Part shown: positions 9,866-25,267 of the stretch, in pieces
Position numbering within the stretch: the first letter of the stretch is position 1
Layout of the letters: each line of letters starts with the position of its first letter
Origin: a virus
Strand: one strand, 5' to 3'
Length of the DNA stretch: 64,000 nucleotides
IMG/VR virus record: IMGVR_UViG_3300042561_001059
Span: 1 to 64,000 of that record
Notes under the pieces: generated by a model
What the model saw: the letters and a program-made list of their open reading frames with translations, nothing else
What the model was told of the DNA's origin: nothing
Databases searched by the model: none
Made by a program: the position numbers and the translations under genes

Positions 9866-9892
9866 GGACCTGAGCATGTCCTTAAACTGCTC
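9866..9892 (+). ncRNA. 27-nt H-type pseudoknot motif, copy 1
   Basis: GGAC/GTCC stem 1; GAGCA/TGCTC stem 2. Confidence 0.75.
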
Positions 9893-9920
9893 TGCAAACA
9901 CTACATTGAATCCACCGCAA

Positions 9921-10094
9921 ATGGCACATCAACTCGACAACAATTACAACGCTGACTTGCTTGATGCCATGGCAGATTATGCTTATGAGCAAGACCAAGC
10001 AATGCGTGAGTCTAGTCCGCAAGATTGGCTTGCTTCTCCTGAAGAATCAAATGATTCTTTTGATGAACTTCACTTATCCAAACTCTACTTCTAA
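9921..10094 (+). CDS. small acidic hypothetical protein
   Basis: start MAHQLD just downstream of the pseudoknot. Confidence 0.45.
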   Translation: MAHQLDNNYNADLLDAMADYAYEQDQAMRESSPQDWLASPEESNDSFDELHLSKLYF

Positions 10095-10096
10095 CC

Positions 10097-10540
10097 ATGG
10101 AACAAACTCAAACTCAACAACGCAATGATGATGTCTTTCTACACGTCATTGCAATTGTCTACACACTGATCACACTATTATTCCAATTTATTTCCCAACT
10201 ATGGCACTTCATCCAGTCACCCAAGAAATCGCTGCAACTTTTGGTTACCAACCCTTCGACGAAGAAGAAGGGCAGCAGCAGTACCAGGCAGAGTGCGACT
10301 TCCAGAACGCACCAAAGGGAGCAATCCCCTGCACTGGTAACGTCTACAGAAACAAACAGGGAGTCCTCCGTTGCTATTGGATTCCAGCCGGAGACAACTA
10401 CTCGGCAGAGGAAAAGGACGACCTCACGGGTTGGTACGACATCCCAACCAACGAAGAAATCGAGGAGTGGTCGTTCGACAGCATCTGCTTCACACCTGGA
10501 GAAGACGAAGTCGAACCAGACCACCCAGACAGTTGGCTGA
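10097..10540 (+). CDS. hypothetical TM protein overlapping the next gene
   Basis: N-terminal TM helix; Ser/Thr/Arg tail overlaps 10201-10560 in another frame. Confidence 0.35.
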   Translation: MEQTQTQQRNDDVFLHVIAIVYTLITLLFQFISQLWHFIQSPKKSLQLLVTNPSTKKKGSSSTRQSATSRTHQREQSPALVTSTETNRESSVAIGFQPETTTRQRKRTTSRVGTTSQPTKKSRSGRSTASASHLEKTKSNQTTQTVG

Positions 10541-10560
10541 GAATACTTGGCTTGATCTAA
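10201..10560 (+). CDS. hypothetical protein
   Basis: 119 aa; acidic, ends with VEPDHPDSWL. Confidence 0.6.
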   Translation: MALHPVTQEIAATFGYQPFDEEEGQQQYQAECDFQNAPKGAIPCTGNVYRNKQGVLRCYWIPAGDNYSAEEKDDLTGWYDIPTNEEIEEWSFDSICFTPGEDEVEPDHPDSWLRILGLI

Positions 10561-10630
10561 GTCAAGTATTGTCTAGCCACAAGAAACTACCGATACTATC
10601 CAAGTATTAGCTAATCAACTAATACAAAGG

Positions 10631-10653
10631 TTATTGAGAACTCTTTGCAATAA
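10631..10653. promoter_or_regulatory. Fur-box-like palindrome
   Basis: TTATTGAGAACTCTTTGCAATAA vs cyanobacterial Fur-type TTATTGAGAATNATTCTCAATAA. Confidence 0.5.
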
Positions 10654-10665
10654 CCTTTAATAAAT

Positions 10666-10703
10666 CTTGGGCGTCCACATACTTATGTGGTGTAAGTCCC
10701 AAG
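10666..10703 (+). ncRNA. bulged hairpin motif (TGGGC..TGTAAGTCCCA), copy 1
   Basis: second copy at 15439-15466. Confidence 0.55.
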
Positions 10704-10733
10704 ATCAATCTTTAAACCAACTGCATCTTTACT

Positions 10734-11057
10734 ATGTCACAAACCCAACTTCATTTTGAATCACGCACTTACAAACTTTCAGATGGTACTGAAAAAGTTT
10801 ATGTAATGCACGATGATAGACGCATTGAACTCATAATCAAAGAACTTAAGGCCATCGTTAAACGAGAAGACGAACGTCCACTTGGATACAATGATCTTCC
10901 ATATGGTTCGGAAGAACAACTATTGGAAGCCATTGATCTTCTTGAGAAAGCAATCGAATGGCCTGGTGATATCAAAGATTCATATGGTGAACCACCTATC
11001 ACCATGGCTGAGATGCACTCTGCTGCATGGAAAGAACATCAAGAAGCCCATCGCTAA
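10734..11057 (+). CDS. hypothetical protein
   Basis: 107 aa ending GEPPITMAEMHSAAWKEH; flanked by Fur-like boxes. Confidence 0.6.
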   Translation: MSQTQLHFESRTYKLSDGTEKVYVMHDDRRIELIIKELKAIVKREDERPLGYNDLPYGSEEQLLEAIDLLEKAIEWPGDIKDSYGEPPITMAEMHSAAWKEHQEAHR

Positions 11058-11077
11058 TTGCGAACCATTCTCAATAA
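11055..11077. promoter_or_regulatory. Fur-box-like palindrome
   Basis: TAATTGCGAACCATTCTCAATAA. Confidence 0.55.
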
Positions 11078-11080
11078 CCT

Positions 11081-11116
11081 ACTCATGTCATGGGTGTTAC
11101 AACTCATGTCATGAGT
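11081..11116. promoter_or_regulatory. tandem palindromic operator-like sites
   Basis: ACTCATG-T-CATGGGT and ACTCATG-T-CATGAGT, 21 bp apart. Confidence 0.45.
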
Positions 11117-11178
11117 AGTTCCACTTGACAGAGAGTGGTAAGCTAACAACATTCAACTACTTCACATCATTCAAAACA

Positions 11179-11397
11179 ATGTCTGCACTTAACGACACTC
11201 CTAAACCACGCATCCCTGACTCAGTAGATCTCCAGAGATTGCAAGCTATGCAACTCGTAGCCAAGATGAAAGAGTCTGCTGATCGTCATGGTATTGGCTT
11301 CGTCGGTGGCTTTATCAGCCCCGACGGACAAAAGTTTATGATGACCAATATGGACGAAGCAGATACTCAAATGCTTCTTCCAGATGACTTGAGGTGA
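11179..11397 (+). CDS. hypothetical protein
   Basis: start MSALND downstream of extended -10 TGGTAAGCT. Confidence 0.5.
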   Translation: MSALNDTPKPRIPDSVDLQRLQAMQLVAKMKESADRHGIGFVGGFISPDGQKFMMTNMDEADTQMLLPDDLR

Positions 11398-11548
11398 ACA
11401 ATGACTAACGCAGACGCTTTATTAATTTGTGTTGCAATTATCTGTGGAACACTCATTGTTCTTAAACGAAGTTAAACATGAGTACATTCTTATTATTCAT
11501 CATCTGCTTTATCCTTGGTTATCTAATAACAAATCAATTGATTAACAA

Positions 11549-11716
11549 ATGACTAAACAAATTATCTACAAAGAAATTATTGAGATTGATGGTCGAGAAT
11601 ACAAAGTTGCAGACTTTGATTATTCTCAGTTTGTAAACGACGCCATCAACCAAAACTTTATTTCAGATGACAACCAAGAGATCATTAACTGGGTTGTTGA
11701 CGACATTGTAAATTAA
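11549..11716 (+). CDS. small hypothetical protein
   Basis: 55-aa ORF MTKQIIYKEIIEIDG, read by hand. Confidence 0.45.
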   Translation: MTKQIIYKEIIEIDGREYKVADFDYSQFVNDAINQNFISDDNQEIINWVVDDIVN

Positions 11717-11718
11717 CA

Positions 11719-11919
11719 ATGACTCAAAAAAAATCACCTATCAATTTTGATAAAACAATCGCAGGCTTTAACATCACAGAACGAGGTGTTAAATCTTATA
11801 CCAAGTCAATTAAACTTGGTCCGTTCCAAGTAACATTCAATGCACGTGAATCGGGTGTGCATGGATCTATTAGTATTCCAGGCACAGGTCTATCCAAAAG
11901 AAATATCAAACTACTTTGA
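11719..11919 (+). CDS. DUF4236-like small protein
   Basis: KSIKLGPF...SISIPGTGLS motif. Confidence 0.5.
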   Translation: MTQKKSPINFDKTIAGFNITERGVKSYTKSIKLGPFQVTFNARESGVHGSISIPGTGLSKRNIKLL

Positions 11920-12054
11920 CCAAACATTAAGACAATATAAAGATCCCCCTACAACCCCCTGGTAACAGCCAGTACCATGAAGAACTCTCTATTACGTTAC
12001 TTAATATCTACCATTTATTAGTACTATCAATATCCATTAATTAACTATTGATCA

Positions 12055-12081
12055 CGTCCTGGACATGACGTTAAACTGTCC
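12055..12081 (+). ncRNA. pseudoknot motif, copy 2
   Basis: CGTC/GACG; GGACA/TGTCC. Confidence 0.75.
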
Positions 12082-12103
12082 ATGTCTTATCCCAACTCAA
12101 CCC

Positions 12104-12301
12104 ATGAATTCATCTCAGTTATTCGCAATGACTGCTTTGATGGAAACCTATGGTGGTACATTTGTATCATCTATTTCCCAAGCACTACGCTATGCAGATC
12201 CAGTGAATCGTCAAAAGCTTCTTGATGCATTCCCTGATCTTGTGGAGAAGTATGGTCCTAACTCTCAATTCATGAAACCCAAAGAACTCATGGAGGTCTA
12301 A
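12104..12301 (+). CDS. hypothetical protein
   Basis: YGGTFVSSISQALRYADPVNRQKLLDAFP, a pattern common in phage early genes. Confidence 0.55.
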   Translation: MNSSQLFAMTALMETYGGTFVSSISQALRYADPVNRQKLLDAFPDLVEKYGPNSQFMKPKELMEV

Positions 12302-12304
12302 TCA

Positions 12305-12562
12305 ATGACAGTACTTGCTATTGAAAACACAATTATTGATGGTTCCAATGTCACAGTTACAGCAGTTGTTGAGGACATGCGTTTGCTTTACAAAGCAACT
12401 CGCGATGACCCTGAAGAATGGGCTCCAGCTCTGTGCACAACATCTTTTGAGTTGGATCCAGAGCAGCCAATTCCTACAGACGAAGATAGTTTCTGTAACT
12501 ATCTGTCTGATCTCAGTCTTAACTGGGAACTCGTTGACACATCTGATTACAACCTAGATTAA
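12305..12562 (+). CDS. hypothetical protein
   Basis: 85-aa ORF, coupled to neighbours. Confidence 0.55.
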   Translation: MTVLAIENTIIDGSNVTVTAVVEDMRLLYKATRDDPEEWAPALCTTSFELDPEQPIPTDEDSFCNYLSDLSLNWELVDTSDYNLD

Positions 12563-12783
12563 TGATTGGTTTTTCAATCGAATTCAAACGTTGGTATTTG
12601 GTTATTCGTGGACCCAAAGGTCGGGTTTACTCCGCCTTTGGATTCGCTAATCAAATGCCAGTCATGCTACCAGATCGTTCAATAACATTGGACGAATACC
12701 TAGCAAATTATGATAATCATCTTGTCTTTACTGATGATCATCTTGTCTTTACCTGCAACGGTAAAGAAATCATGAGGTTTTAA
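12562..12783 (+). CDS. hypothetical protein with internal 21-bp tandem duplication
   Basis: DNHLVFT-DDHLVFT at 12711-12752. Confidence 0.45.
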   Translation: MIGFSIEFKRWYLVIRGPKGRVYSAFGFANQMPVMLPDRSITLDEYLANYDNHLVFTDDHLVFTCNGKEIMRF

Positions 12784-12788
12784 TCATT

Positions 12789-12815
12789 GGTCCTGAGCAT
12801 GACCTTAAACTGCTC
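12789..12815 (+). ncRNA. pseudoknot motif, copy 3
   Basis: GGTC/GACC; GAGCA/TGCTC. Confidence 0.75.
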
Positions 12816-12844
12816 AACACTACGAACTTAACTCCGAACACACT

Positions 12845-14584
12845 ATGCATTTTCATTTGCCTTCTAACTTGCAAACTGAGTTGATTGCGTATGACCCAGT
12901 CCTTAAGAAGCTGGCACGCAATACAAATCCAAAACCTAAAACCAAGAAATCAACTTATCCGCTTGGTAATCCCAAAGGATTAATTCCTGTTGATGTAGTG
13001 CGTGAGTCTATGCTTGACGACGCTATTAAAAACATTAACTCTTGTCCTGCATCTGATCGACATCAGAAGTTTACTCGTATTGTAAATGGTGAAGTAATTG
13101 TTACTGCCATCCTTTATCACTACGAGCAATGTTGGTATGCAGCATGGCTACCACCCAAAGAGAAAGAGGATAAGTATGTGTATGGCTATGCCTTTGCATT
13201 CAAAGATACAAAAGCTGCTCACGATATTGTTCCTAAAGTAATTATTAATTCAATTGATTCTTATCAACAAATAATCACTGGTCGCTCTTTGATGTACCAG
13301 CATCAAGAGGTTGTGACAATAGAATCAATCCGTAATGGACAGACGAATCGCAATTGGAATATCCCAAGTGCTGCTGCTTATTACAAAAAGAGTAAAGAGC
13401 TCTATCAAATTATTAAAGCATTTGAATCCCAATTGATAACTACAATTCCTGTATGGAAAGATTCACCTAATATCTTTGATCGTATTGCAAATAAAACTAA
13501 TCTTGCTTCTATTGTTTTCCAAGGATCATTAGAAATTAGTGATGAATATTGGCTTCAGTATGGAGACAAATCAAAATGGAAGGCTTCATATGAAAACCTA
13601 TTTGGTTTGATTACTTACCATGCACACACTAGTTGTTATGCCGGTGATGAATATAAAGCATACAATAAAATACTTCACATTATTTCTAAGCCATTCTTTA
13701 AGAAATGGATTCAAGCAAAATGTGATGAAGTTAATGCAATGCACCTTGATGAAACAAATGAATACCGTAGTTATATCAATAGACCATGGAAAATTATGAA
13801 AAAACTTTTAGCACGTATCTATGCTATTCATAAGATTTGGCCTGATTGCCCTATTGATTATTATCAAAATCATATTGAACAATTGATTAGTATTGACTTT
13901 ACCCGTCAATCGCCAACCACTGCGGTATCTGATTGGCTTGGTAAGCACATGCCTGTTGCATCGTTCTTCCAGATTATTACTAAACAATATGAGAAGGAAC
14001 GCCATGATGCTCAGACAAAAAACATGCAACGTTATTTCTTTGATGAACATCTTGGGCTTAGTGTTTACAGATTCTATGAATGGGCAGATACTATCTCAAT
14101 GCTTTGTCGTATTCTTGAAAGAGAAGAACACAAAGATTTTGCTCCGCCAAAGCGGTGGCGCATTGAAGAGTTTCATGACTATGTCCAGGCAGAAGCATGG
14201 AAGATTAGAAATCCAAACCATGCCTTACCTCAAGACTTGTTTCCAATACCTGTCAAAATTGAATTGGGTTCCAGTAATTGGTCTTTCTTTCAACCAATTG
14301 ATACCCATCAACTTGGCGAATGGGGACAAGCGGTTCGTAACTGTGTAGGTAACGCTGCCCATTACGCAGAAGGTGTGCGTAAAAAACAACACTTTATTGT
14401 GTTGTGTTTGATTGACAGCAAACCAAACTTCACAGTTCAACTCGAAGTCAGTAACGGTTTGATGTCCGTCAAACAAATCGTTGGGCTATCAAATACCAAG
14501 CTTACGCCGGAACAACAAGAGCTGTACACCACAGCATTTGGCATGGCTTTGCAAGCTCGTGAATCTGAGCTAGTATCTGCTTAG
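12845..14584 (+). CDS. PcfJ-like domain protein
   Basis: C-terminal LGEWGQAVRNCVG..Y..FTVQL..QIVGLSN resembles the PcfJ-like domain. Confidence 0.6.
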   Translation: MHFHLPSNLQTELIAYDPVLKKLARNTNPKPKTKKSTYPLGNPKGLIPVDVVRESMLDDAIKNINSCPASDRHQKFTRIVNGEVIVTAILYHYEQCWYAAWLPPKEKEDKYVYGYAFAFKDTKAAHDIVPKVIINSIDSYQQIITGRSLMYQHQEVVTIESIRNGQTNRNWNIPSAAAYYKKSKELYQIIKAFESQLITTIPVWKDSPNIFDRIANKTNLASIVFQGSLEISDEYWLQYGDKSKWKASYENLFGLITYHAHTSCYAGDEYKAYNKILHIISKPFFKKWIQAKCDEVNAMHLDETNEYRSYINRPWKIMKKLLARIYAIHKIWPDCPIDYYQNHIEQLISIDFTRQSPTTAVSDWLGKHMPVASFFQIITKQYEKERHDAQTKNMQRYFFDEHLGLSVYRFYEWADTISMLCRILEREEHKDFAPPKRWRIEEFHDYVQAEAWKIRNPNHALPQDLFPIPVKIELGSSNWSFFQPIDTHQLGEWGQAVRNCVGNAAHYAEGVRKKQHFIVLCLIDSKPNFTVQLEVSNGLMSVKQIVGLSNTKLTPEQQELYTTAFGMALQARESELVSA

Positions 14585-14635
14585 CCCCCACAGGCTGGCC
14601 AGTCCTATTCTGTTGAGTAGGGCTGGCCTTATCAA

Positions 14636-14854
14636 ATGACTAACTACACCGACGATCAACTCCTGGCCATGGCCATGGCAAACATTGGAGAATTCATTCA
14701 TGACAATTCACCTCATTATGTATTGATCGAAAAAGATCCACGTAATGAAGATGATTACGATAGTTGGACTTACGGTATGGAAGTCCTGCCTAGTGATCAC
14801 ACTTGGTATCACACATCAATTGATGTGAGTGTAAATCCAAGTGAGCCTGAGTAG
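14636..14854 (+). CDS. hypothetical protein
   Basis: 72 aa; stop overlaps the tRNA 5' end. Confidence 0.45.
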   Translation: MTNYTDDQLLAMAMANIGEFIHDNSPHYVLIEKDPRNEDDYDSWTYGMEVLPSDHTWYHTSIDVSVNPSEPE

Positions 14855-14917
14855 CCCAGCGGAAGAGGCAAACGACTTAAAATCGTTCCAGCGTGGGTTC
14901 GAATCCCTCCTCAGGCA
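14845..14917 (+). tRNA. tRNA-Leu(UAA), short variable loop, no encoded CCA
   Basis: GCCTGAG/CTCAGGC acceptor stem; AACGA-CTTAAAA-TCGTT anticodon arm; GGTTCGAATCC T-loop. Confidence 0.85.
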
Positions 14918-14935
14918 GTTTTTTATTTTACATCT

Positions 14936-15436
14936 ATGAGCCACGCTAAAGCAGCTTTACTACAAGCTTATAAAAAGGGTTATAGAGTTAAAGATAATGT
15001 TGTTTATGGCATTATTAAAAAACAACCTTTAAAATTAAGTTGTTCTCAATCTGGTTATTTATTTTTTAATATAAAACTTGGATCAAGAACACTTAAAGTA
15101 TTTTTGCATCGTTTAGTTGCTTATGAAAAATATCAAGACAAATTATTTGAACCAGGAATATTGGTTCGCCATTTAAATGGAAACAGTAAAGACAATTCAT
15201 TTGAAAACATTTCTATTGGAACACAAACAGAAAACATGTTAGATAGAAGTCCTGAAGAACGACTAAACCATGCAATTAAAGCATCTAGTTTTAAACGTAA
15301 ATTTACAAATGAAAAAGTAAGTCAAATTAAACTTGATCATGCAAACGGTTTAGGTTATAAAGCTTTAATGGAAAAATATTGCATTACTTCTAAAGGAACT
15401 TTGCATTATATTCTTACGCGTGAATATGTAACTTAA
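14936..15436 (+). CDS. HNH homing endonuclease
   Basis: LHRLVA...VRHLNGNSKDNSFENISIGTQTENM; AT-richer than its flanks. Confidence 0.8.
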   Translation: MSHAKAALLQAYKKGYRVKDNVVYGIIKKQPLKLSCSQSGYLFFNIKLGSRTLKVFLHRLVAYEKYQDKLFEPGILVRHLNGNSKDNSFENISIGTQTENMLDRSPEERLNHAIKASSFKRKFTNEKVSQIKLDHANGLGYKALMEKYCITSKGTLHYILTREYVT

Positions 15437-15438
15437 AT

Positions 15439-15466
15439 CTGGGCATTCGTAAGATGTAAGTCCCAG
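15439..15466 (+). ncRNA. bulged hairpin motif, copy 2
   Basis: CTGGGCATTCGTAAGATGTAAGTCCCAG. Confidence 0.55.
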
Positions 15467-15495
15467 GTACCAAACCTTTACTTAACTCAAACATC

Positions 15496-15858
15496 ATGTC
15501 AATCTTTTCTGTTGTCAAACATCTCATTCCTCAACCCCATGCTTTCATGGATGAGGATAAACGCTACAACCTTGGACTTACTTGGACTGATACAGAGGGT
15601 CTGACTGACTCCCACAATCTGGAACTCAAGTACGTTCGTAACTCAGAACGTCTTGCACTCCAGGGGCAGCCACAGCCTGATGGCAGTTGGCAATACACAG
15701 AAGCCAACGGTACAGTCCATACCATTTCAGCGGATCGTGCTGCAGCATTCATGGAAAAAACTCATGAGCATGCAACGATCATGTGTCAAATGCTTGACAG
15801 ATTAAAAGAAGCTGGAATTGTTGGTCAAACAATTGACACCAGTGCACAGCCTGCGTAA
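15496..15858 (+). CDS. hypothetical protein
   Basis: 120-aa ORF. Confidence 0.55.
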   Translation: MSIFSVVKHLIPQPHAFMDEDKRYNLGLTWTDTEGLTDSHNLELKYVRNSERLALQGQPQPDGSWQYTEANGTVHTISADRAAAFMEKTHEHATIMCQMLDRLKEAGIVGQTIDTSAQPA

Positions 15859-15861
15859 TCT
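15833..15861 (+). promoter_or_regulatory. sigma70-type promoter
   Basis: TTGACA-N17-TAATCT. Confidence 0.5.
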
Positions 15862-15903
15862 ATTAATGTGTTTTGGGTGCCCCCAGCAATGGGGGCTTTT
15901 CAT

Positions 15904-16233: not shown

Positions 16234-16263
16234 TCTCGTTAAAGAACTTACTAAACCAAAGTA

Positions 16264-17396: not shown

Positions 17397-17509
17397 ACAA
17401 CTGCAGTAGGTTGTTTACCTAATGCTTTAACAGCATGAAGAAATTCGATTTGCTTTCGAATTTCTTTTGCTTTTTTATTTGTCAGATAAATAATAAATCC
17501 AGTTTTCAT
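17393..17509 (-). CDS. 38-aa small protein coupled to the DUF4278 gene
   Basis: MKTGFIIYLTNKKAKEIRKQIEFLHAVK; ATGA overlap. Confidence 0.4.
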   Translation of the reverse strand: MKTGFIIYLTNKKAKEIRKQIEFLHAVKALGKQPTAVV

Positions 17510-17730: not shown

Positions 17731-17757
17731 CGTCCTAGATATGACGTTAAACTGTCT
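17731..17757 (+). ncRNA. pseudoknot motif, copy 4
   Basis: CGTC/GACG; AGATA/TGTCT (one G-U pair). Confidence 0.7.
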
Positions 17758-17809
17758 ATGACATATTAGTTTTATTAATGTATTTGTATTCAATCCAACT
17801 TAACTTAAT

Positions 17810-18803: not shown

Positions 18804-18876
18804 GATATTGATGCCATGACATAGTTGCAATCAACAGGAAAGCTTGTATTATTTAGCAGGCTTTCCTGAATCTTTT

Positions 18877-19110: not shown

Positions 19111-20908
19111 GCGTTGGCTTGTCTTTGATATCGAATCTGATAATCTTTATGACAAGGTCACTAAGATCCACTGCATTGTCATTCATGATATCTACGGAAA
19201 CAAAACTACTACTTATGGGCCTGACCGCATTGACGATGCTCTTGAGCATTTGGCTTGCGGTCATGTTCTAATAGGTCACAATATTCTTTTCTATGACATT
19301 CCAGTAATTCACAAGCTTTATCCGTTTTATACGGAAGCACAAATTATTGACACACTCATCTGTACTCGACTCATCTGGCCTAAAGAAAAACTCTATGAAC
19401 TTGATACAGAACAATATACGCAGGTTCCAAAGAACTTGTGTGGTTCAGCGTCGCTCAAGGCTTGGGGCCATCGTCTATCAGATTACAAAATTAACTTCAA
19501 AGATTTCTCTGAATACTCAGAGGAGATGGCCGTCTACTGTAGGCAAGACGTATCAGTTACCTACAAACTATTTCAGCACATTCAAAAACAAAACTATCCA
19601 GAACCAGCGCTTAAGTTGGAACATGACTTTGCTTTGGCAATTGAAAGACAAATTAGATCAGGTTTTCCTTTTGATGTTGATGCATGTCTTGATCTGGTGG
19701 ATGATCTCCGAACAAAAGAAACAGAACTTGCAACACACTTAAAACAAATCTTTCCACCTATTGAACATAAAGAAGTATTTGTACCCAAGGTAAATAACAA
19801 AACTCGTGGTTATGTTAAAGGCGTACCATTTGAAAAAATTCGTATAGAAGAATTTAACCCTGGATCCAGGCAACAAATTACAGATCGATTAAAACAAAAG
19901 TACAATTGGCAACCTGAAAAATTAACAGCAAAAGGTAATCCAATTCTTGATGATGAAGTCATTGAGAAGTTGCCATATCCAGAAGCTAAACCGTTAGCAG
20001 AATATATGTTGATTGAGAAACGTCTTGGTCAAATTGCTGATGGCAACAATGCTTGGCTCAAACTTGTTAACAATGACACCGGTTGTATCCACGGTGATCT
20101 TATTACTAACGGTTGCATTACTGGGCGTTGCGCACACCGCAATCCAAATATGGGTCAAGTCCCTGCTGCTTACTCCCCATATGGAAAGGAATGTCGAAGT
20201 TTATTCCATGCTCCTGACGGGTGGTCTCTCATTGGTGTTGACGCTAAAGCACTTGAGTTACGTTGCCTTGCTGGATACCTTGCCCTCTGGGATAATGGAG
20301 AGTATGCCTCTGTTGTGACTAATTCAGATGTTGACATTCATACTTATAACCAAGAAAAGTTTGGTGTTGCTACCAGGGACATTTCAAAGCGACTTTTATA
20401 TGGGCTTCTATATGGATGTGGATCTTTGAAGGCTGGAACAATTATTAATCCAGATGAAAAAGATGTAGAAGTTCTGCGTCACTTAGGAAGTAATGCAATC
20501 AATTCATTCATGCGTGGACTGCCAGCTTTGAAGCGATTAAAAAATGAAATCGCTTTATCTATTCAACAGCGTGGTTGGTTGTATGGATTAGACAAACGTA
20601 TTCTTTATTGCAGATCTGACTTTAAAGGATTGAATGTATTATTACAATCTTCTGGTGCATTAATTATGAAACAAGTTGTTATTAACTTGCATCAATTAAT
20701 GGAAGAGGCTGGTTATCAATATGGAGTTGACTGGCAACAACAAGGCATGATCCATGACGAAATCCAGTTGAGTTGTAAACCAAACCTTGTGGAAACATTA
20801 AAAGAGCATGCGTTAAATGCATTTCCTGCAGCGCAACAATTCTTTGGATTTCGTTGTCCCATTGAGGGCGATGCCAAAGTAGGATACACCTGGCTTGATA
20901 CTCATTAA
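19088..20908 (+). CDS. polA: family A DNA polymerase with 3'-5' exonuclease (T7-like, Tyr in motif B)
   Basis: FDIESD exo I; TGRCAHRNPN; DAKALELR motif A; KRLLYGLLYG motif B; HDEIQ motif C. Confidence 0.95.
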   Translation: MKANSDTERWLVFDIESDNLYDKVTKIHCIVIHDIYGNKTTTYGPDRIDDALEHLACGHVLIGHNILFYDIPVIHKLYPFYTEAQIIDTLICTRLIWPKEKLYELDTEQYTQVPKNLCGSASLKAWGHRLSDYKINFKDFSEYSEEMAVYCRQDVSVTYKLFQHIQKQNYPEPALKLEHDFALAIERQIRSGFPFDVDACLDLVDDLRTKETELATHLKQIFPPIEHKEVFVPKVNNKTRGYVKGVPFEKIRIEEFNPGSRQQITDRLKQKYNWQPEKLTAKGNPILDDEVIEKLPYPEAKPLAEYMLIEKRLGQIADGNNAWLKLVNNDTGCIHGDLITNGCITGRCAHRNPNMGQVPAAYSPYGKECRSLFHAPDGWSLIGVDAKALELRCLAGYLALWDNGEYASVVTNSDVDIHTYNQEKFGVATRDISKRLLYGLLYGCGSLKAGTIINPDEKDVEVLRHLGSNAINSFMRGLPALKRLKNEIALSIQQRGWLYGLDKRILYCRSDFKGLNVLLQSSGALIMKQVVINLHQLMEEAGYQYGVDWQQQGMIHDEIQLSCKPNLVETLKEHALNAFPAAQQFFGFRCPIEGDAKVGYTWLDTH

Positions 20909-20924
20909 TAAAATATTAACTATT

Positions 20925-20951
20925 CGTCCTAGGCATGACGCTAAACTGCCT
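20925..20951 (+). ncRNA. pseudoknot motif, copy 5
   Basis: CGTC/GACG; AGGCA/TGCCT. Confidence 0.75.
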
Positions 20952-20972
20952 TACCACCTGACTTCTGATCCA

Positions 20973-21785
20973 ATGAATCTTTCATTTCTTTGTGCACAAA
21001 CGGTTGGCGTACCAAAAGAAAAAGCTATTAGCGAAAATTCTTTTGCAACTGTTTGTGATTTGTTGTTGCCTCCTGTAGGTAACAAAGCTCCAACACCTAT
21101 TCAACTTAATGTTTATGGCAAAGCTGCTGAGCGTTTTGCTCGTGTACCAGCGGGTGCACAGATTTACATCCATGGTTCAAAGCTTCGGTACGATTTGAAT
21201 TCAAAGACTTATTCATTGCAAGGGGGAATTGTTACCCAGGTTGATACTGCATTTCCAATTTTGAACACTGTTGTTCTTAGTGGTCGTTGCGTTAAAGACA
21301 TCGATCAAGAAGATGCACGTGCATTCAAAACAACCGCAGATGGTTTGATGATCTGCAATCAAACTCTTTCTGTTAATACAGGAAGAAACCAAGCAGATTT
21401 GTTTAACTTCTATGCAATTAATACAGCAGAAGATAAGTTAAACAATGCAGAACTTCTGGTTAACTTTACACGCAAAGGAACGGGTCTTAGCATCCAGGGT
21501 AAGTTGGTTACTGATTCTTGGGTTGATAAAGAAACCAAAGAAAAAAAGAATCTGACCAAGATTCAATTGGTGTCAATGACCTTGGCTCCCAAGGGAAATA
21601 CAGAGTCAAAGCCAATTACATCGCAGACAACCGTTGCATCTTCTACAGATGTTGGGAGTTTGTGGGGTGGCAAGGTTGCAGAAGATCTTGCGGAACCATG
21701 GGGATCTCAACATGGTGCATCTCTTCCTGACCTCCCTGGCTATGCTATGGCTGGCGCTAACGACGACTCTGACCCTCCGTTCTGA
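20973..21785 (+). CDS. ssb: single-stranded DNA-binding protein with two OB-folds
   Basis: second domain NTVVLSGR..RKGTGLSIQGKLVTDSWVDKET; acidic tail DDSDPPF. Confidence 0.75.
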   Translation: MNLSFLCAQTVGVPKEKAISENSFATVCDLLLPPVGNKAPTPIQLNVYGKAAERFARVPAGAQIYIHGSKLRYDLNSKTYSLQGGIVTQVDTAFPILNTVVLSGRCVKDIDQEDARAFKTTADGLMICNQTLSVNTGRNQADLFNFYAINTAEDKLNNAELLVNFTRKGTGLSIQGKLVTDSWVDKETKEKKNLTKIQLVSMTLAPKGNTESKPITSQTTVASSTDVGSLWGGKVAEDLAEPWGSQHGASLPDLPGYAMAGANDDSDPPF

Positions 21786-21790
21786 ATCCA

Positions 21791-22024
21791 ATGACTATTT
21801 ACAATCATTACGAATTTAAACATGTTGATGATTCCACCACTTACTTGGTTTCGTTTAACGCCGATCTTGGATCAAGTATTATTGATTCTTTTATTAACTT
21901 CATGAGCGGCTGTGGGTTTGCAAAATCATTTGTAATTAATTACATGGAAGAACTTGTTGAAGAATACAGAGATGCGCAAAAAACACTTGCAAAAATTGAA
22001 GACGAACTTATTGGTCTTGATTGA
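21791..22024 (+). CDS. hypothetical protein
   Basis: FINFMSGCGF motif common in phage small proteins. Confidence 0.55.
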   Translation: MTIYNHYEFKHVDDSTTYLVSFNADLGSSIIDSFINFMSGCGFAKSFVINYMEELVEEYRDAQKTLAKIEDELIGLD

Positions 22025-22029
22025 TTAAC

Positions 22030-22056
22030 CGTCCTGGGCATGACGTTAAACTGCCT
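22030..22056 (+). ncRNA. pseudoknot motif, copy 6
   Basis: CGTC/GACG; GGGCA/TGCCT. Confidence 0.75.
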
Positions 22057-22077
22057 ATCACTCAACAACAAACCATC

Positions 22078-23169
22078 ATGACTTCTATTCTTGATGCTCT
22101 GAGACAACCTGATCCTGACACTGAACAAACCTCTGAACCTACTACTAAAACATCTGCAAAAATCATGACTACTAAGAAGACATCTGCATTGGCTACTCGT
22201 GGACTGGAATCGTTCAAACTTTTTCAAGATAAGAAGTTTGTTTCCGGGTACCAAAATCTCGTCACCATCCAGCCCCTTAACAAGTCAAAGACAAGAGGTT
22301 GGTTCGTGCGGAACTCAGACTTGGATACTTGCGGATGGAGTGCCACTGAAACTGACTTTGCTAAAGGTTCAGTTCTCTGGAACTACAAGCAAACTTTTGG
22401 TATGGCTCCCAACACTTCAGTGGAAGAAGGACTCAATTTTGTTGAGCCTCGCATTCAAATCCTTTTACGTTCTCCCCTCATGGTTGAGGAAACTACTGGG
22501 ATGAGGCAGACGATTGGAACCTTTGAGGATCCAGATGTTAAAGAATTGTTTGAAGCAGATAAAATTGCGTCGGACCTTGCTAATAGCAAAGGTGAGATGT
22601 ACAAGCGTAAGTACAGTGTACGTACAAAGTATCTTGTTTATATTCTGACCCAGGAAAACAAGCGTGCGCATAAGATTCCAATGGTTCTTACCCTGAAGGG
22701 ATTGAATGGCACAGATGTTTCCGACAAGGTCAAGATGTATGAAAAAGAAATGTCCAAGTGTTTGAGCAAGGCTTTGGATTCGGAGGTGCCTCTTGCATTC
22801 AATGAAAAGTTTTACGCAACTACCGTATTTGCTCCGATACTTGCCAACGAAATGCGTGGCGCCAACAACGTTGAGATCTGCGCAATTGAATCTTTTAACA
22901 TCCCTGATTACAGCAGCCAAGAAACCGCAATCGAATCACTAAATCAGATGTCAATTCCTGATGAAGATCGGGAATCAACTTGGAAGTATCAAGACATGTT
23001 TGCGGATTATATTAATCAGCATGCACGTCAAGACGCTGAAAAACTTGGTGGTGCTTATGGAATTAAAGAAGGTGTTGAAATTCTTCCGGCATCCAGGAGC
23101 ATTGATGTAGAAGCAAAGCTTTTAACTTCTGCACAAGATCCTGATACGGGTGAGAACTTTAGTTTCTAA
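22078..23169 (+). CDS. conserved hypothetical protein (DUF5895-like)
   Basis: PRIQILLRSPL...YLVYILTQENKRAHKIPMVLTLKG resembles cyanobacterial DUF5895 as recalled. Confidence 0.45.
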   Translation: MTSILDALRQPDPDTEQTSEPTTKTSAKIMTTKKTSALATRGLESFKLFQDKKFVSGYQNLVTIQPLNKSKTRGWFVRNSDLDTCGWSATETDFAKGSVLWNYKQTFGMAPNTSVEEGLNFVEPRIQILLRSPLMVEETTGMRQTIGTFEDPDVKELFEADKIASDLANSKGEMYKRKYSVRTKYLVYILTQENKRAHKIPMVLTLKGLNGTDVSDKVKMYEKEMSKCLSKALDSEVPLAFNEKFYATTVFAPILANEMRGANNVEICAIESFNIPDYSSQETAIESLNQMSIPDEDRESTWKYQDMFADYINQHARQDAEKLGGAYGIKEGVEILPASRSIDVEAKLLTSAQDPDTGENFSF

Positions 23170-23420
23170 GACTTAAGTTCAGGGTTGGCAATTTCATTTG
23201 CATCAATCAACACATTGTTGAATAAGTGAATGTCTTTAACCAACCCTTTTATTACACCTTGACGTTGTGTGGCGATTCTTGCTAAAAGAGTCGCCATTTC
23301 TTTTAATGCATTTACGGAGTTACAATCTTGAATTGCACGTTTAATTTTTTCTTCCCAAAATAAATCATCAATTGATGGTTCAATATCAAACTTACTAAGT
23401 GGCACGTAATGCTCTTCCAT
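23166..23420 (-). CDS. hypothetical helical protein, possibly a divergent NblA-like protein
   Basis: SIDDLFWEEKIKRAIQDC..LKEMATLLAR spacing; lone antisense gene. Confidence 0.35.
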   Translation of the reverse strand: MEEHYVPLSKFDIEPSIDDLFWEEKIKRAIQDCNSVNALKEMATLLARIATQRQGVIKGLVKDIHLFNNVLIDANEIANPELKS

Positions 23421-23463
23421 AAATAACCATGGAGGATAATCAATTCTACACATAACTAAACAA

Positions 23464-23655
23464 ATGAAACATGAAGAAAAAGTTGCGTTGGCTACAGGAA
23501 CAGCAGTTATGTTGATTGCTGGTCCCATAGCTCTTGCACTGGGAACACCAGTTGCCTTTGGTGCCCTTGCTTTTGGTACGTATCGAACTGCAAAGTCTGC
23601 CTATGATCGAGCCTTGTTTCGTAGTAAAGTGAAGCCGCCCCACGGGGAACTTTAA
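23464..23655 (+). CDS. small membrane protein
   Basis: hydrophobic hairpin. Confidence 0.45.
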   Translation: MKHEEKVALATGTAVMLIAGPIALALGTPVAFGALAFGTYRTAKSAYDRALFRSKVKPPHGEL

Positions 23656-23678
23656 TTAACTCAACTTTTAATCAAACC

Positions 23679-24647
23679 ATGGAAAACCAATTAGTAACGC
23701 AACTCAACACAGCACAACAATTTATTTACTCTCGTTCAAATATTAGGAGAGCTTATTTAGATTTTGATGATACTGACATTGCAGGAATTAATCTTTCTGA
23801 TAAAGATATTATTGTTATTCGCAATGACGGTACAAATCAAAAGTATGACAAGCAATTGGTTTGTAGTGCGTACCAGGCATATACAGGACGCTTAAAAGAC
23901 TTCTTTGCTTACTTGGGACCTAACTATCGTGGACCATCAATCTGGCGAAACAATGCCTACATCATGTTTAAAGGTTGGCACTACAACCATAAGCTGGGAT
24001 ACCTTACGCAATCTGCACAAATACAACGTGCGTGGGCTGATAAATTCATTCACATATCAGATCGAACCAAGTTGGTTCAATTACTTCAATCAGATCAAAC
24101 TGACCTTGGGCACCTGGTTGCCCCTGATGGTTTCCACGAAATTAATGATGCCATTGACTTTGATGCTCCTGAACCAGAATCGGATGTTGAGGCTAGTAGC
24201 TTACAAAAACTTCAGGCAAGTCCATACTGCTCTTGCGGTTCGTTCCAAAAACAACTGAATAATCTATCTGAGTTCCAGGCTGAGATTGAAGGTTACAAGC
24301 CTTGGTGTATTCATTTAACATGGATGCAACGTTATCGTCAGCTCCTTGTTAAACGTGGTGAAGTCCGTTCGCAATGCCGTGGTCAAGTTGCAGAACATGC
24401 TGTGGCTTGGTGGTACGCACCACCAGAAGGCAAGTCTGATGAAGGGAGGTTTGTTGTTTTATACACCAAGCAAGGCTCTATGGCTTCACTTAAGTCTTGG
24501 CGTACCTACAAACCAAAAGAAGTCTTTACTCAAAAACATGTTTGGGATTTATTTGATAACATGTTAGATAATGGCTTTGTTCCGTTTCCAGGTACTTCTC
24601 TTCCTCAATTAAAAAACGCATGGAAAACAACGCCAAAGAATACATAA
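23679..24647 (+). CDS. SWIM zinc-finger domain protein
   Basis: YCSCGSF...WCIHL (CxC..CxH). Confidence 0.6.
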   Translation: MENQLVTQLNTAQQFIYSRSNIRRAYLDFDDTDIAGINLSDKDIIVIRNDGTNQKYDKQLVCSAYQAYTGRLKDFFAYLGPNYRGPSIWRNNAYIMFKGWHYNHKLGYLTQSAQIQRAWADKFIHISDRTKLVQLLQSDQTDLGHLVAPDGFHEINDAIDFDAPEPESDVEASSLQKLQASPYCSCGSFQKQLNNLSEFQAEIEGYKPWCIHLTWMQRYRQLLVKRGEVRSQCRGQVAEHAVAWWYAPPEGKSDEGRFVVLYTKQGSMASLKSWRTYKPKEVFTQKHVWDLFDNMLDNGFVPFPGTSLPQLKNAWKTTPKNT

Positions 24648-24877
24648 CTCAAATGCAGTTTGAATGTGCTGACCCTGCTTCTGTATTTAAACTTGACATT
24701 AAATACATTGAAGAAGAAAATGGAGGCGGTACTATTCAAATTGAATGGGACGAAGAAGATGCTGATCTCCAATGGTGGAATAACCTTGGAGAAGAAAAGC
24801 AACAACAATTTATTCTTGATGCTTTAACTGCTGCTATTTCTAATGCACTTGATGAGGATGAATCTGATGGGATTTGA
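24620..24877 (+). CDS. hypothetical protein
   Basis: 85-aa acidic ORF. Confidence 0.5.
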   Translation: MENNAKEYITQMQFECADPASVFKLDIKYIEEENGGGTIQIEWDEEDADLQWWNNLGEEKQQQFILDALTAAISNALDEDESDGI

Positions 24878-25235
24878 AACTTACGGCTTGCCTGAAACTG
24901 AGTACTACAAAATTTTAAGTAGTAAGTCTCAGTTTATTCTTAACTGTTTAGCAGTTATGACAACTGAAGCTTCTAATAAAGGCATTAACCTTCAAGGGTT
25001 TAACGACAAATTTCTTTGGGATATGTTTATGGAATGTGTGTATTCTGCTGATGAGGAAGCACGCATCATTCAAAAAGAAAACAACCCAGATGAAATTAAA
25101 GCTAGATCGTGGGATCCAGGCCCTAGTCGAGATGAGCTAATGGAAGAAATTAAATCTGTCAACGCTAAAACAGAAGCATTGACTGATTACATTGCAGAGT
25201 TAATAACTAAATTTTTTCCTAAAGTTACAGATTAA
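24867..25235 (+). CDS. hypothetical protein
   Basis: start MGFETYG. Confidence 0.5.
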   Translation: MGFETYGLPETEYYKILSSKSQFILNCLAVMTTEASNKGINLQGFNDKFLWDMFMECVYSADEEARIIQKENNPDEIKARSWDPGPSRDELMEEIKSVNAKTEALTDYIAELITKFFPKVTD

Positions 25236-25240
25236 TTAAA

Positions 25241-25267
25241 CGTCCTAAGCATGACGTTAAACTGCTT
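25241..25267 (+). ncRNA. pseudoknot motif, copy 7
   Basis: CGTC/GACG; AAGCA/TGCTT. Confidence 0.75.

Follow-up and report, generated by a model that had tools for sequence, protein, structure and literature searches.

The −1 frameshift pseudoknots of the BWYV class in luteovirids share a short stem 1, a 2-nt loop 1 that begins with C, a short stem 2, an unpaired junction U and an A-rich loop 3 of 6–7 nt. The leader of T4 gene 32 carries a single H-type pseudoknot ahead of the phage SSB gene, where it nucleates gp32 binding, and ligand binding is a property of other small pseudoknots, preQ1-I among them. Type III antitoxin RNAs (ToxI-like) are tandem pseudoknot repeats beside a ToxN-family gene, and pistol ribozymes (RF02679) combine P1, a pseudoknot and P2/P3 with a G-U cleavage site. 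Bacterial intercistronic and 5' stabilisers include the RNase III sites of T7 and SP82, ompA-type 5' hairpins and stalled ribosomes in B. subtilis. A further compact RNA fold is coremin (xrRNA-C), which together with xrRNA-WCC is described as a motif of eukaryotic RNA viruses, beny- and cucumoviruses and many others among them (PMC6546385, PMC10520033, PMC10321173). As given in PMC6546385, coremin has a stem G2-U3-C4/G9-A10-C11, a loop that begins with C and ends with A-D, and the spacer G-U-U-A-A-A-C-U; Xrn1 resistance is reported for natural coremins whose loops reach 8 nt (PMC10520033). Coremin is also reported to stall scanning ribosomes and to drive −1 frameshifting (PMC10520033, PMC10321173). 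In its Watson-Crick variant the loop pairs with the spacer, which makes it a genuine pseudoknot; variants of this kind came out of a frameshift screen in E. coli, and the same source describes frameshifter pseudoknots of similar build that lacked Xrn1 resistance (PMC10321173). A bacterial nuclease, RNase J1, is reported to be stopped in vitro by a flaviviral xrRNA (PMC5760640).

Here we analyzed a 64,000-nt stretch (the window) of an 83,534-bp virus record, from a lake cyanophage related to Synechococcus phage S-EIV1, in which an earlier note had described seven plus-strand copies of a 27-nt H-type pseudoknot. A degenerate 27-mer matched the window without mismatch at exactly these seven places (Table 1), whereas 100 shuffles gave an expectation of 0.01 matches and none of them reached seven. 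Permitting up to three mismatches added no further match in the window, and the whole record gave seven forward, no reverse and no control matches. The covariance model scored the seven copies at 39–46 bits and the next-best match in the window at 9.8 bits (E 5.6). The copies are dispersed at intervals of 0.7–5 kb among the genes of the replication module, and the likely start codons, expected about 20–50 nt behind them, lie at 21–52 nt. The description of all copies as intergenic held for five; copies 1 and 2 are overlapped by mechanical ORFs (9864–10094 and 12065–12301), although the in-frame ATGs of these ORFs lie downstream of the knot. Likewise, the spacers between knot and start are C/A-rich, G-poor and devoid of GGAG in six copies, but the longest spacer, that of copy 4, is A/T-rich.

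Table 1. The seven pseudoknot copies and a nearby hairpin in the window, with their stems (S1, S2), covariance model scores and neighbouring genes.
Feature	Position	Strand	S1	S2	Score (bits)	Upstream	Downstream
Copy 1	9866–9892	+	GGAC/GTCC	GAGCA/TGCTC	42.9	65 nt past stop of ORF 9276–9800	28 nt to ATG 9921, small ORF
Copy 2	12055–12081	+	CGTC/GACG	GGACA/TGTCC	43.2	135 nt past preceding long ORF	22 nt to ATG 12104, small ORF
Copy 3	12789–12815	+	GGTC/GACC	GAGCA/TGCTC	44.8	5 nt past TAA of ORF 12562–12783	29 nt to 579-aa PcfJ-like gene (12845–14584)
Copy 4	17731–17757	+	CGTC/GACG	AGATA/TGTCT, U-G wobble	39.1	334 nt past thyX	52 nt to ATG 17810; GP88-family gene next
Copy 5	20925–20951	+	CGTC/GACG	AGGCA/TGCCT; third loop CTAAAC	42.6	16 nt past family A DNA polymerase stop	21 nt to SSB start (20973)
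Copy 6	22030–22056	+	CGTC/GACG	GGGCA/TGCCT, G-U wobble	46	5 nt past TGA of ORF 21791–22024	21 nt to DUF5895 gene (22078–23169)
Copy 7	25241–25267	+	CGTC/GACG	AAGCA/TGCTT	45.3	5 nt past TAA of ORF 24843–25235	22 nt to ATG 25290 (37-aa ORF), then 239-aa ORF 25405–26124
Terminator-like hairpin	17437–17467						about 260 nt upstream of copy 4

Each of the seven copies has both stems paired, in the variants listed earlier, G-U wobbles included. The fold consists of a 4-bp stem 1 (N-G-W-C), a C-U loop 1, a 5-bp stem 2 with a purine 5' strand and a pyrimidine 3' strand, a single junction U and a loop 3 of Y-U-A-A-A-C. The loops C-U and U are the same in 7/7 window copies, and the third loop reads TTAAAC in every copy other than copy 5. 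In 101 distinct sequences, standard pairs make up 93.4% of the 909 pair cells, whereas slid partners reach 27–46%, and double-sided changes occupy 182 cells against 63 in shuffles; the observed values were reached by none of 500 shuffles. U-G and G-U cells are numerous (e.g. 27 at one pair). Stem 2 by itself is paired in 94.3% of its cells and shows double-sided changes at three of its five pairs. When we collected with a looser pattern that fixes only 14 bases and leaves seven pairs unconstrained, 79 of the 129 matches formed all seven free pairs and another 39 formed six, the chance of seven out of seven being about 0.1%. Among the 110 copies outside the window, G2 is kept in 99% and W3 in 89%, both being free in the search pattern, while C4, G13 and C15, at 100%, were preset by it. 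One locus (L238) carries a tandem pair of knots. Because the stems covary, tolerate G-U wobbles and occur in seven forward and no reverse matches, the element is a single-strand RNA fold, an H-type pseudoknot, and not an operator in duplex DNA, as had been argued from the window copies.

The knot was found at 118 IMG/VR loci and in 139 cultured-phage records, as well as in prophage and cellular loci of many phyla; it occurs across Cyanobacteria, Bacillota, Actinomycetota phages, Patescibacteria, Planctomycetota, Omnitrophota and some Proteobacteria. Phages with no obvious common proteins have it, among them S. aureus phietaviruses, cyanophages, Vibrio phages and a crAss-like phage. This spread favours a self-contained fold over a phage-specific protein partner. 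In a test of hosts, no hit came from 401 genomes of the class to which the Vibrio genome G001 belongs, and two came from 401 genomes of the class of the Enterococcus G003, with G003 among the two. The proposed search of Rfam left the novelty of the element intact, with no match to the knot at the gathering score of Rfam 15 in the whole window. At E ≤ 10, three loci with five of the seven copies gave no riboswitch, pistol, hammerhead, twister, hatchet or HDV match, and the only overlap was a chance-level RAGATH-22 hit with 18 bits against a cut-off of 120.3 bits. No description of such a knot in phages was found in the literature searched. Whatever its function, the knot is a large and well-supported RNA family missing from Rfam, and some records label its place as a promoter.

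The placement of the knot follows rules on both sides. It begins exactly 5 nt past a stop codon in 27 of 113 copies (22 of 91 after flank clustering), and the gap is 5–9 nt in 47/113 copies, compared with 7/565 random positions, and shorter than 5 nt in only three; for about half of the 113 copies, a long ORF ending within 14 nt upstream is missing. The stop codon is TAA in 44 of 55 cases, against 666 of 1482 long ORFs of the same loci. On the other side, the start codon follows at 20–29 nt in 41/113 copies (control 59/565), and in 8/113 a tRNA follows at 3–11 nt, implying that the function is not purely translational. The most frequent PHROGs among 57 non-redundant downstream proteins are head scaffolding families (with 7, 5 and 3 members), and the 48 upstream proteins include minor head, head morphogenesis, portal and protease. 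An example is S. aureus phage phiJB, where a small hypothetical ORF that follows the head morphogenesis gene lies on one side of the knot and the genes for scaffold and major capsid lie on the other. The gene behind the knot is often one needed in bulk, scaffold elsewhere and SSB in the window; the polymerase/SSB pair of the window and the head genes of phiJB are low-to-high expression steps within operons. The knot also precedes HNH genes in unrelated phages, and at cellular loci a leader ORF of 22–25 codons stops inside the knot and an Rrf2 gene begins 8–37 nt on, without an SD in two loci.

The phage consensus, G-W-C, a loop C...A-U, G-W-C and then N-Y-U-A-A-A-C-U, resembles coremin in its short G-W-C stem with a closing C-G pair, in a loop that begins with C and ends with A-(A/G/U), and in the spacer N-U-U-A-A-A-C-U. 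A stem of the coremin hp1 type (3–4 bp, G-U-C/G-A-C, with C-G loop closure) is present in 7/7 window copies. Pairing of the loop to the spacer gives an H-type pseudoknot, possibly in the manner of coremin and xrRNA-WCC, with an A-rich strand proposed to lie in the minor groove of stem 1; stem 2 of the phage knot has five Watson-Crick or wobble pairs and begins one base later than in xrRNA-WCC, a shift that leaves the C of AAAC unpaired. Coremin likewise occurs in several copies, intergenically and a few nucleotides past stop codons, but in eukaryotic RNA viruses, whereas the hosts of the phage knot are dsDNA phages and bacteria. Three features needed in coremin differ in the phage knot. First, the loop C-U-R-R-R-Y-A-U departs from the coremin consensus YGAD/YGNNAD: C in first place, A in the penultimate and U in the last agree with it, but at position 2, where coremin requires G, all phage copies found have U (C in three S-EIV1 copies). 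Second, U-A-A-A-C-U is kept in 7/7 window copies, but the A16–A20 stretch of coremin (A-A-C-U-A) is not, since the next base, position 20, is G instead of A (7/7 window and 5/7 S-EIV1 copies, this G being preset by the collection pattern). Third, coremin needs a downstream hairpin, hp2, for Xrn1 resistance, and hp2 is absent from all seven window copies, where the next 35 nt have a minimum free energy of 0 to −2.1 kcal/mol; a hairpin of at least 4 bp beginning within 3 nt downstream was found in 7 of the 110 copies outside the window.

The earlier note suggested three functions, and the most fitting of them is a 5' exonuclease roadblock, since the knot has a conserved core that corresponds to coremin, which stalls Xrn1 (PMC6546385, PMC10321173). 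By analogy, our leading though still tentative reading is a directional roadblock of the coremin kind, by which the RNA downstream would be shielded and insulated. What it would block, and how this would affect expression, we infer as follows. Transcribed within a polycistronic phage message, the knot would fold unaided into a compact H-type pseudoknot and, as coremin xrRNAs do, form a protein-independent, directional mechanical block to machines moving 5' to 3' on RNA: RNase J where the host has one, elsewhere 5'-end-dependent scanning by RNase E, and also ribosomes. At a cistron boundary it would halt decay arriving from upstream, so that the downstream cistron would outlive the upstream one, and it would uncouple the downstream unit from translation upstream. 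The cistrons so protected would be SSB, the PcfJ-like gene, the DUF5895 gene and small ORFs in the window, and scaffold and capsid genes and tRNAs elsewhere. Known bacterial stabilisers are similar in that intercistronic RNA structures give neighbouring cistrons different lifetimes, but they are hairpins or protein or ribosome complexes of one host each, unlike one tiny pseudoknot common to many phyla.

The gene order supports such a roadblock, with scaffold downstream and portal and minor head proteins upstream, and with polymerase upstream and SSB downstream in the window, as do the G-poor flanks on both sides of the knot and the unstructured 35 nt behind it, which are expected for an isolated fold. 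Against it stand the three departures from coremin, the lack of Xrn1 resistance in frameshifter pseudoknots of similar build (PMC10321173) and, at least as strongly pointing to the ribosome as to a nuclease, the sharp 5-nt stop gap and the TAA excess. RNase J cannot be the sole target, because carriers exist without an RNase J above the family cut-off: none was found in a Coxiellaceae MAG and an Omnitrophota MAG, both with perfect copies (though the MAGs may be incomplete), nor in the Vibrio genome used as a stand-in for the hosts of Vibrio phages. In an RNA run (X20; contigs only, depth about 3), pieces start 21–26 nt behind three knots and none contains a knot, while the end of one piece falls 4 nt inside copy 7. 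A decay product that the knot protects would be expected to start at the knot, and this is a weak hint against the roadblock, as contigs cannot show true ends. With somewhat more reserve, we suggest that the knot might be the first prokaryotic xrRNA, resistant to exoribonucleases and ribosomes alike: a universal protein-free mechanical stop for 5'-to-3' motors, used by DNA phages and a few bacteria to punctuate operons, so that every cistron or tRNA would have a separate lifetime. Its core would be common to it and the coremin xrRNA of plant, fungal and insect RNA viruses through descent or convergence. If it does block 5'-to-3' decay or ribosomes, the range of xrRNAs, so far one of eukaryotic RNA viruses, would come to include DNA phages and bacteria, the unequal protein yields from one long transcript (polymerase versus SSB; portal versus scaffold and capsid) would be explained, and a 27-nt host-independent part would be available to stabilise or insulate genes of synthetic operons.

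A possible but less probable reading places the action of the knot on the ribosome, at its mRNA entry site while the upstream stop codon is in the A site: the knot may fix termination and keep post-termination ribosomes or 30S subunits from sliding into the next cistron, or it may provide a structure for docking or stand-by some 20–30 nt ahead of an SD-poor start. The 5-nt mode, the 5–9-nt class, the TAA excess and the starts at 20–29 nt all agree with this, and frameshift and readthrough pseudoknots keep the same distance from their recoding codon as the knot keeps from the stop. Recoding pseudoknots are described as sitting several nucleotides downstream of the recoding site (PMC3835772). 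The reported block of scanning ribosomes and the −1 frameshifting by coremin (PMC10520033, PMC10321173) point the same way, as do the cellular leader ORFs that end in the knot ahead of Rrf2. Yet the tRNAs behind eight copies and the many copies without a long ORF ending just upstream are difficult to reconcile with it, and TAA is a poor readthrough codon. Moreover, any fold would need a minimum of 5 nt to survive termination, so that the spacing may reflect only genome compaction. The knot shares the overall build of the BWYV-class frameshift knots and their place 5–9 nt behind the A-site codon, but here a stop codon, not a slippery heptamer, stands upstream (heptamers are not enriched, with 5/113 copies compared with 52/2260 random positions), many copies occur per genome and some precede tRNAs.

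It is unlikely that the knot is a 3' end cap or processing mark, left on the upstream RNA when an endonuclease cuts the spacer or RNase P cuts before a tRNA, where it would block 3'-to-5' exonucleases (PNPase, RNase II/R) present in all bacteria. The tight linkage with the upstream stop codon, the tRNAs at 3–11 nt, whose maturation by RNase P would make the knot a 3' end, the host range regardless of RNase J and, weakly, the RNA contig that ends in copy 7 would agree with a cap; but a cap predicts the opposite gene order, as the bulk genes (scaffold, SSB) lie downstream and the low-copy ones (portal, minor head, polymerase) upstream. A 9-bp knot would also block more weakly than ordinary phage hairpins, and in 26 of 112 copies the sequence immediately upstream is already structured (z < −2).

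Quite improbable is a binding site for a protein or small ligand, be it an operator or sensor, an autoregulator of the SSB/gp32 type or a decoy for a host defence RNase, even though the loop residues (C-U, U and U-A-A-A-C) are invariant, since these are equally explained by tertiary contacts inside the fold. The suggested regulon tied to SSB-like proteins, with gene 32-type autoregulation, found no support: only one of the seven window copies lies ahead of SSB, and the same knot precedes scaffold, HNH, tRNA and Rrf2 genes, the last a cellular regulator, and occurs in phages without obvious common proteins. The suggested ligand sensor fared no better, being unlikely for an element present seven times per genome before unrelated genes and tRNAs, and the Rfam searches (gathering score for the window, E ≤ 10 for five copies) gave no match to preQ1-I or other small pseudoknot riboswitches. 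Still less probable is a processing signal, either a tiny self-cleaving ribozyme or a mimic cut by RNase P/Z, that punctuates the polycistronic RNA; the position between cistrons and beside tRNAs (0 nt after tRNA-Tyr at locus L059) is punctuation-like, but the searches at E ≤ 10, made for five of the seven copies, gave no ribozyme match, pistol (RF02679) included, no conserved sequence or partner strands beyond the 27 nt were found among the copies compared, and a 3' CCA-like tail is absent. A DNA-level element, i.e. a promoter or a single-stranded DNA structure, can be practically discounted: the phiJB and B236 records label the spot 'promoter' (in phiJB 'putative promoter P5R') and the place of the knot, before genes and tRNAs, would suit a promoter, but the covariation with frequent G-U pairs is strand-specific, sigma-70-like hexamers are absent at the copies (region, 35 found versus 49 expected), position 1 is mostly a pyrimidine, and the T-A-A signal at −8 to −6 consists of stop codons, not −10 boxes.

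In the related phage S-EIV1 we found seven copies, of which five are strong and two degenerate, and several lie ahead of genes orthologous to those of the window. Its 585-aa counterpart of the PcfJ-like gene is also preceded by a copy, and a degenerate copy (13.1 bits) occupies the same place as window copy 6. The copy ahead of its SSB gene has AAGCA/TGCTT as stem 2, a compensatory change relative to window copy 5, and another precedes a small ORF that starts MFE, as does the ORF behind window copy 7.

The degenerate 27-mer that the earlier note had picked out matches the window at seven sites, all on the plus strand and with no mismatch, where 0.01 matches would be expected by chance. The whole 83,534-bp record, which is rated complete, holds the same seven copies; its reverse strand has no copy, and a reversed control pattern has no match. 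A covariance model gives the seven 39–46 bits, and no other site in the window exceeds 9.8 bits. The H-type pseudoknot formed by each copy (hereafter the knot) has a stem 1 of positions 1–4 with 13–16 and a stem 2 of positions 7–11 with 23–27, with a C-T loop, a single T at the junction and a Y-T-A-A-A-C loop. Both stems are paired in all seven copies, with the stem variants listed in that note, which upholds the covariation claimed there. Sequence conservation is confined to the 27 nt and ends at both edges.

Knot copies and other located features (positions of the window unless a locus is named)
Feature	Position	Strand	Remarks
Knot copy 1	9866	+	
Knot copy 2	12055	+	
Knot copy 3	12789	+	
Knot copy 4	17731	+	
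Knot copy 5	20925	+	
Knot copy 6	22030	+	
Knot copy 7	25241	+	
tRNA-Leu (anticodon TAA)	14845-14917		in replication module; adjoins no knot copy
Terminator-like hairpin with T-run	17437-17467		after thyX
Starts of pieces in RNA run X20	20974, 22082, 25288		near start codons
End of a piece in RNA run X20	25245		4 nt into copy 7
Stretch of higher G+C	48001-52000		52.9%; most other 4-kb stretches about 37-46%
Adjoining stretch	52001-56000		G+C 48.1%
CRISPR spacer, Bradymonadales MAG	L216:1788-1813		27-mer identical to copy 7
Knot in phage phiJB record (KT344895)	L246:1490-1530		labelled 'putative promoter P5R'
Knot in S. aureus phage B236 record			promoter label at the knot too

The same fold was found in many other viral contigs. 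When IMG/VR was scanned with a pattern in which only 14 bases are fixed, at least 118 loci were obtained, and among the 129 matches listed, 79 have all seven of the pairs left unconstrained (about 0.1% expected by chance) and 39 have six. We aligned all 94 distinct 27-mers among the matches listed, unfiltered for pairing, together with the seven window copies. Standard pairs fill 93.4% of the 909 pair cells of this alignment, compared with 27–46% when the partners were slid by one to three columns, and double-sided changes occupy 182 cells, compared with 63 in shuffles; none of 500 shuffles equalled the observed values of pairing and covariation. G-U or U-G pairs are common (for example, 27 of these 101 sequences at one stem-2 pair) and would become A-C mismatches if read on the opposite strand. 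These pairs and the strict strand bias assign the fold to the transcript (or to the same strand as single-stranded DNA) and not to a duplex operator, as the earlier note had argued. In an alignment of knot copies and in 110 IMG/VR copies among the matches listed, stem 2 is never inverted: its 5′ strand is purine-rich (R-R-R-Y-A) and its 3′ strand pyrimidine-rich, and positions 7–9 are purine and 25–27 pyrimidine in nearly all copies. This strand asymmetry suggests that loop 1 makes tertiary contacts in the groove of stem 2.

The window copies are located in a replication module that encodes a PcfJ-like protein, ThyX, a GP88-family protein, a family A DNA polymerase, SSB and a DUF5895 protein. 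The phage is related to Synechococcus phage S-EIV1, the sole match in the phage collection (an 18-kb query aligned over 24% of its length at 74% identity), which carries five strong and two degenerate knot copies. Several of them precede the counterpart genes, namely those for SSB, a 585-aa protein, a DUF5895-type protein and a small ORF beginning MFE, and the SSB-gene copies of the two phages differ in stem 2 by a compensatory change. Three of the window copies begin 5 nt after a stop codon and one begins 16 nt after, and an ATG lies 21–29 nt behind the knot in six cases and 52 nt behind it in one. The gap of about 260 nt between the hairpin after thyX and copy 4 holds no long ORF, and transcription may start there. 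The DNA sets that best hold the phage are lake-water metagenomes, among which the source sample may be. Recombination at 'joints' between knot copies in DNA contigs was considered and rejected, the short sides of 28–34 nt being alignment effects of the repeat.

The IMG/VR contigs with the knot are very different from one another, and their 77 fully paired copies listed comprise 13 stem-1 and 29 stem-2 variants. A single 39-nt BLAST query matched 139 records of cultured phages, 83 of Staphylococcus, 27 of Vibrio and 3 of Synechococcus, with further records from phages of Microcystis, Nostoc, Mycobacterium, Arthrobacter, Paracoccus, Lactobacillus, Streptococcus and Bacillus, a thermophile phage and a crAss-like phage. 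Cellular genomes were scanned at one genome per prokaryote species, and the 119 matches listed are bimodal, with a chance hump at 1–4 pairs and 25 matches with 6–7 pairs. These 25 come from Enterococcus (three), Clostridium (two), Eubacterium, Ruminococcus, Desulfosporosinus, Nostoc, Halothece, five Patescibacteria/Saccharibacteria, an Omnitrophota, three Planctomycetales, two Deltaproteobacteria-type MAGs, a Coxiellaceae MAG, an Aquimarina genome, an unclassified bacterial MAG and a CRISPR spacer in a Bradymonadales MAG. A strict pattern gave 0 and 2 matches in 401 genomes of each of two classes, too few for comparison. The Bradymonadales spacer belongs to an array of 42 repeats (37-nt repeat) and its 27-mer has flanks different from those of copy 7, showing that at least one host targets a phage at the knot. 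In a Planctomycetales MAG (L238), two tandem knots stand 7 nt apart, the second with A for T at the junction position.

The knot is thus far without a catalogue entry. In Rfam 15 at gathering score, tRNA-Leu was the sole match in the window, with none on the knot copies; at E ≤ 10, nothing meaningful fell on the copies in three sub-loci, the sole overlap being RAGATH-22 at 18 bits against a cut-off of 120.3 bits. We found no description of the phage knot family in the full-text literature outside subscription journals, closed supplements and the S-EIV1 genome paper. The knot is part of a large, uncatalogued family of phage RNA pseudoknots; among known elements, coremin, the xrRNA-C of eukaryotic RNA viruses that stalls Xrn1, comes nearest to it in sequence and shape.

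According to the available texts, coremin has a stem of 3–4 bp (G2-U3-C4/(G9)-A10-C11), a loop C5-G6-A7-A8 with the consensus YGAD, a spacer G12-U13-U14-A15-A16-A17-C18-U19-A20-C21 with A16-A20 essential, and a required second, downstream hairpin, hp2 (PMC6546385). Natural coremin loops of up to 8 nucleotides resist Xrn1, a YGNNAD rule is given, and scanning ribosomes are blocked (PMC10520033); the words phage, bacteria and RNase J do not occur in the available text of that paper. Coremin also drives −1 frameshifting, and its Watson-Crick variants, which came from a frameshift screen in E. coli, pair loop positions 6–8 with spacer positions 18–20; frameshift pseudoknots such as BWYV are not Xrn1-resistant (PMC10321173, available text). 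PMC11702639, as far as available, concerns class 3 xrRNAs, not coremin. Compared with coremin as defined in the main texts (the Dilweg supplementary tables may list further allowed loop variants), the phage knot agrees in the stem, in the spacer N-U-U-A-A-A-C-U and, within the loop, in the first residue and the last two, but it has U instead of G at loop position 2, G instead of A at spacer position 20, and a stem 2 of 5 bp that is shifted by one base relative to Watson-Crick coremin. It also does without hp2, a hairpin standing right behind the knot in none of the 7 window copies and in 7 of 110 other listed copies. Because of these four differences, we call the knot coremin-like, not a member by the rules in those texts.

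Where the knot stands relative to genes was counted for 113 of the 124 unique IMG/VR copies among the matches listed, namely those that form 8 or all 9 of the pairs. In 27 of these 113, an ORF of 50 codons or more on the same strand closes exactly 5 nt ahead of the knot; in 47 the distance is 5–9 nt (random positions in the same loci, 7 of 565), and in only 3 is it below 5 nt. When the copies were grouped by shared flank 9-mers, the 5-nt case was seen in 22 and the 5–9-nt case in 39 of the 91 groups from the listed matches. TAA serves as the stop codon in 44 of the 55 close cases among these matches; for long ORFs of the same loci the figure is 666 of 1482. Behind the knot, the next start lies at 20–29 nt in 41 of the 113 listed copies (control, 59 of 565), and a tRNA begins 3–11 nt behind it in 8; one listed copy directly follows a tRNA. 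The flanks are G-poor on both sides (G 5–12%), and in 55% of the 110 IMG/VR copies listed an A comes directly after the knot. The 35 nt behind the knot are unstructured in the listed copies (mean z −0.24), and a structured stretch, often terminator-like, lies in front in 26 of 112. Use of the internal AUG of the knot as a start codon was rejected, the knot-to-start gaps showing no excess of the in-frame class.

The neighbouring proteins of the 113 listed copies (57 downstream and 48 upstream, after removal of near-duplicates, of proteins shorter than 60 aa and of ORFs truncated at the end of a locus) were searched against PHROGs. Three head-scaffolding families (7, 5 and 3 members) are commonest downstream, followed by several HNH endonuclease families; since these counts are per family and may overlap, scaffold proteins amount to between 7 and 15 of the 57. 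Upstream, minor head, head morphogenesis, portal and protease proteins are commonest. In S. aureus phage phiJB, a small hypothetical ORF after the head morphogenesis gene is followed by the knot and then by the scaffold and major capsid genes, and Enterococcus prophages have the same order; the clearest case in the window is DNA polymerase, knot, SSB. Within one transcription unit, the knot thus tends to stand where a gene for a low-copy product gives way to one for a high-copy product. In two Enterococcus prophages and an IMG/VR contig (L159, L196 and L111), the knot is succeeded after about 8 nt by a second hairpin, of 5 bp, and then by T-(T)-A-A-A-A and the scaffold gene's SD. This has the appearance of a second, degenerate copy with the same architecture.

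By analogy with coremin, we tentatively read the knot as a directional mechanical block, which would stop machines coming from the 5′ side so that the RNA downstream is shielded and insulated. We favor this reading because the fold is self-contained and host-independent, its core matches coremin, which has been shown to halt both Xrn1 and ribosomes, it precedes bulk products and tRNAs, and it is kept just beyond the reach of a terminating ribosome. The failure of three coremin rules in the phage knot counts against it. Bacterial RNase J1 was stopped in vitro by a flaviviral xrRNA (PMC5760640), which indicates that specific enzyme contacts are unnecessary for such blocks. The RNase J family model scored above cut-off in the Enterococcus and Nostoc genomes and not in the Vibrio genome or the Coxiellaceae and Omnitrophota MAGs, which may be incomplete; both MAGs carry perfect knot copies, and the three genomes argue that RNase J is not the sole target. 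In hosts without it, candidate targets would be RNase E, which scans in a 5′-end-dependent manner, or the ribosome.

RNA evidence came from Logan contigs, parts without cover not being used, and the two RNA runs have small shares (0.09 and 0.06). In run X20, the only one with pieces in the window (contigs, depth about 3), three pieces begin 21–26 nt behind copies 5, 6 and 7, another ends within copy 7, and no piece spans a knot. These ends are a weak hint at most and could reflect chance, a processing site or a cDNA effect; they speak against a roadblock, since a decay product under its protection would be expected to start at the knot itself.

The main rival is a role directed purely at the ribosome, which we consider rather unlikely. 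The 5-nt mode between stop codon and knot equals the spacing of recoding pseudoknots, a gap that puts stem 1 at the mRNA entry site with the stop codon in the A site, and the TAA excess and the cellular leader ORF described below point the same way. Recoding itself is unlikely, since slippery sites are not enriched before the listed IMG/VR copies and TAA dominates. That the knot caps the 3′ end of the upstream RNA would fit its link to stop codons, but this role predicts protection of the wrong neighbour and seems improbable. The SSB-operator reading was not supported. A promoter, with the A/T-rich box just upstream as the −10 element and the knot as the 5′-terminal structure, was rejected because the T-A-A signal at −8 to −6 is the upstream stop codon, there is no enrichment of sigma-70-like sites, and most copies have a pyrimidine at position 1.

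A cellular form of the knot occurs in Omnitrophota, Planctomycetales and Deltaproteobacteria-type MAGs (L132, L206 and L221, also L158 and L169), where a conserved leader ORF of 22–25 codons is preceded by a TTGACA resembling a promoter element, together with an inverted repeat and an SD. Its peptide reads ...RPVAHCKEGCS..SWA in three loci. The TGA stop of the leader lies inside the knot (positions 12–14) in four loci, and in L158 a TAA stop lies in loop 3. The arrangement, with two Cys codons in the leader, resembles a leader that senses translation. In L132, L206 and L221, a gene for an Rrf2-family regulator (Pfam PF02082, E 8e-29) starts 8–37 nt behind the knot, in two of them without an SD.
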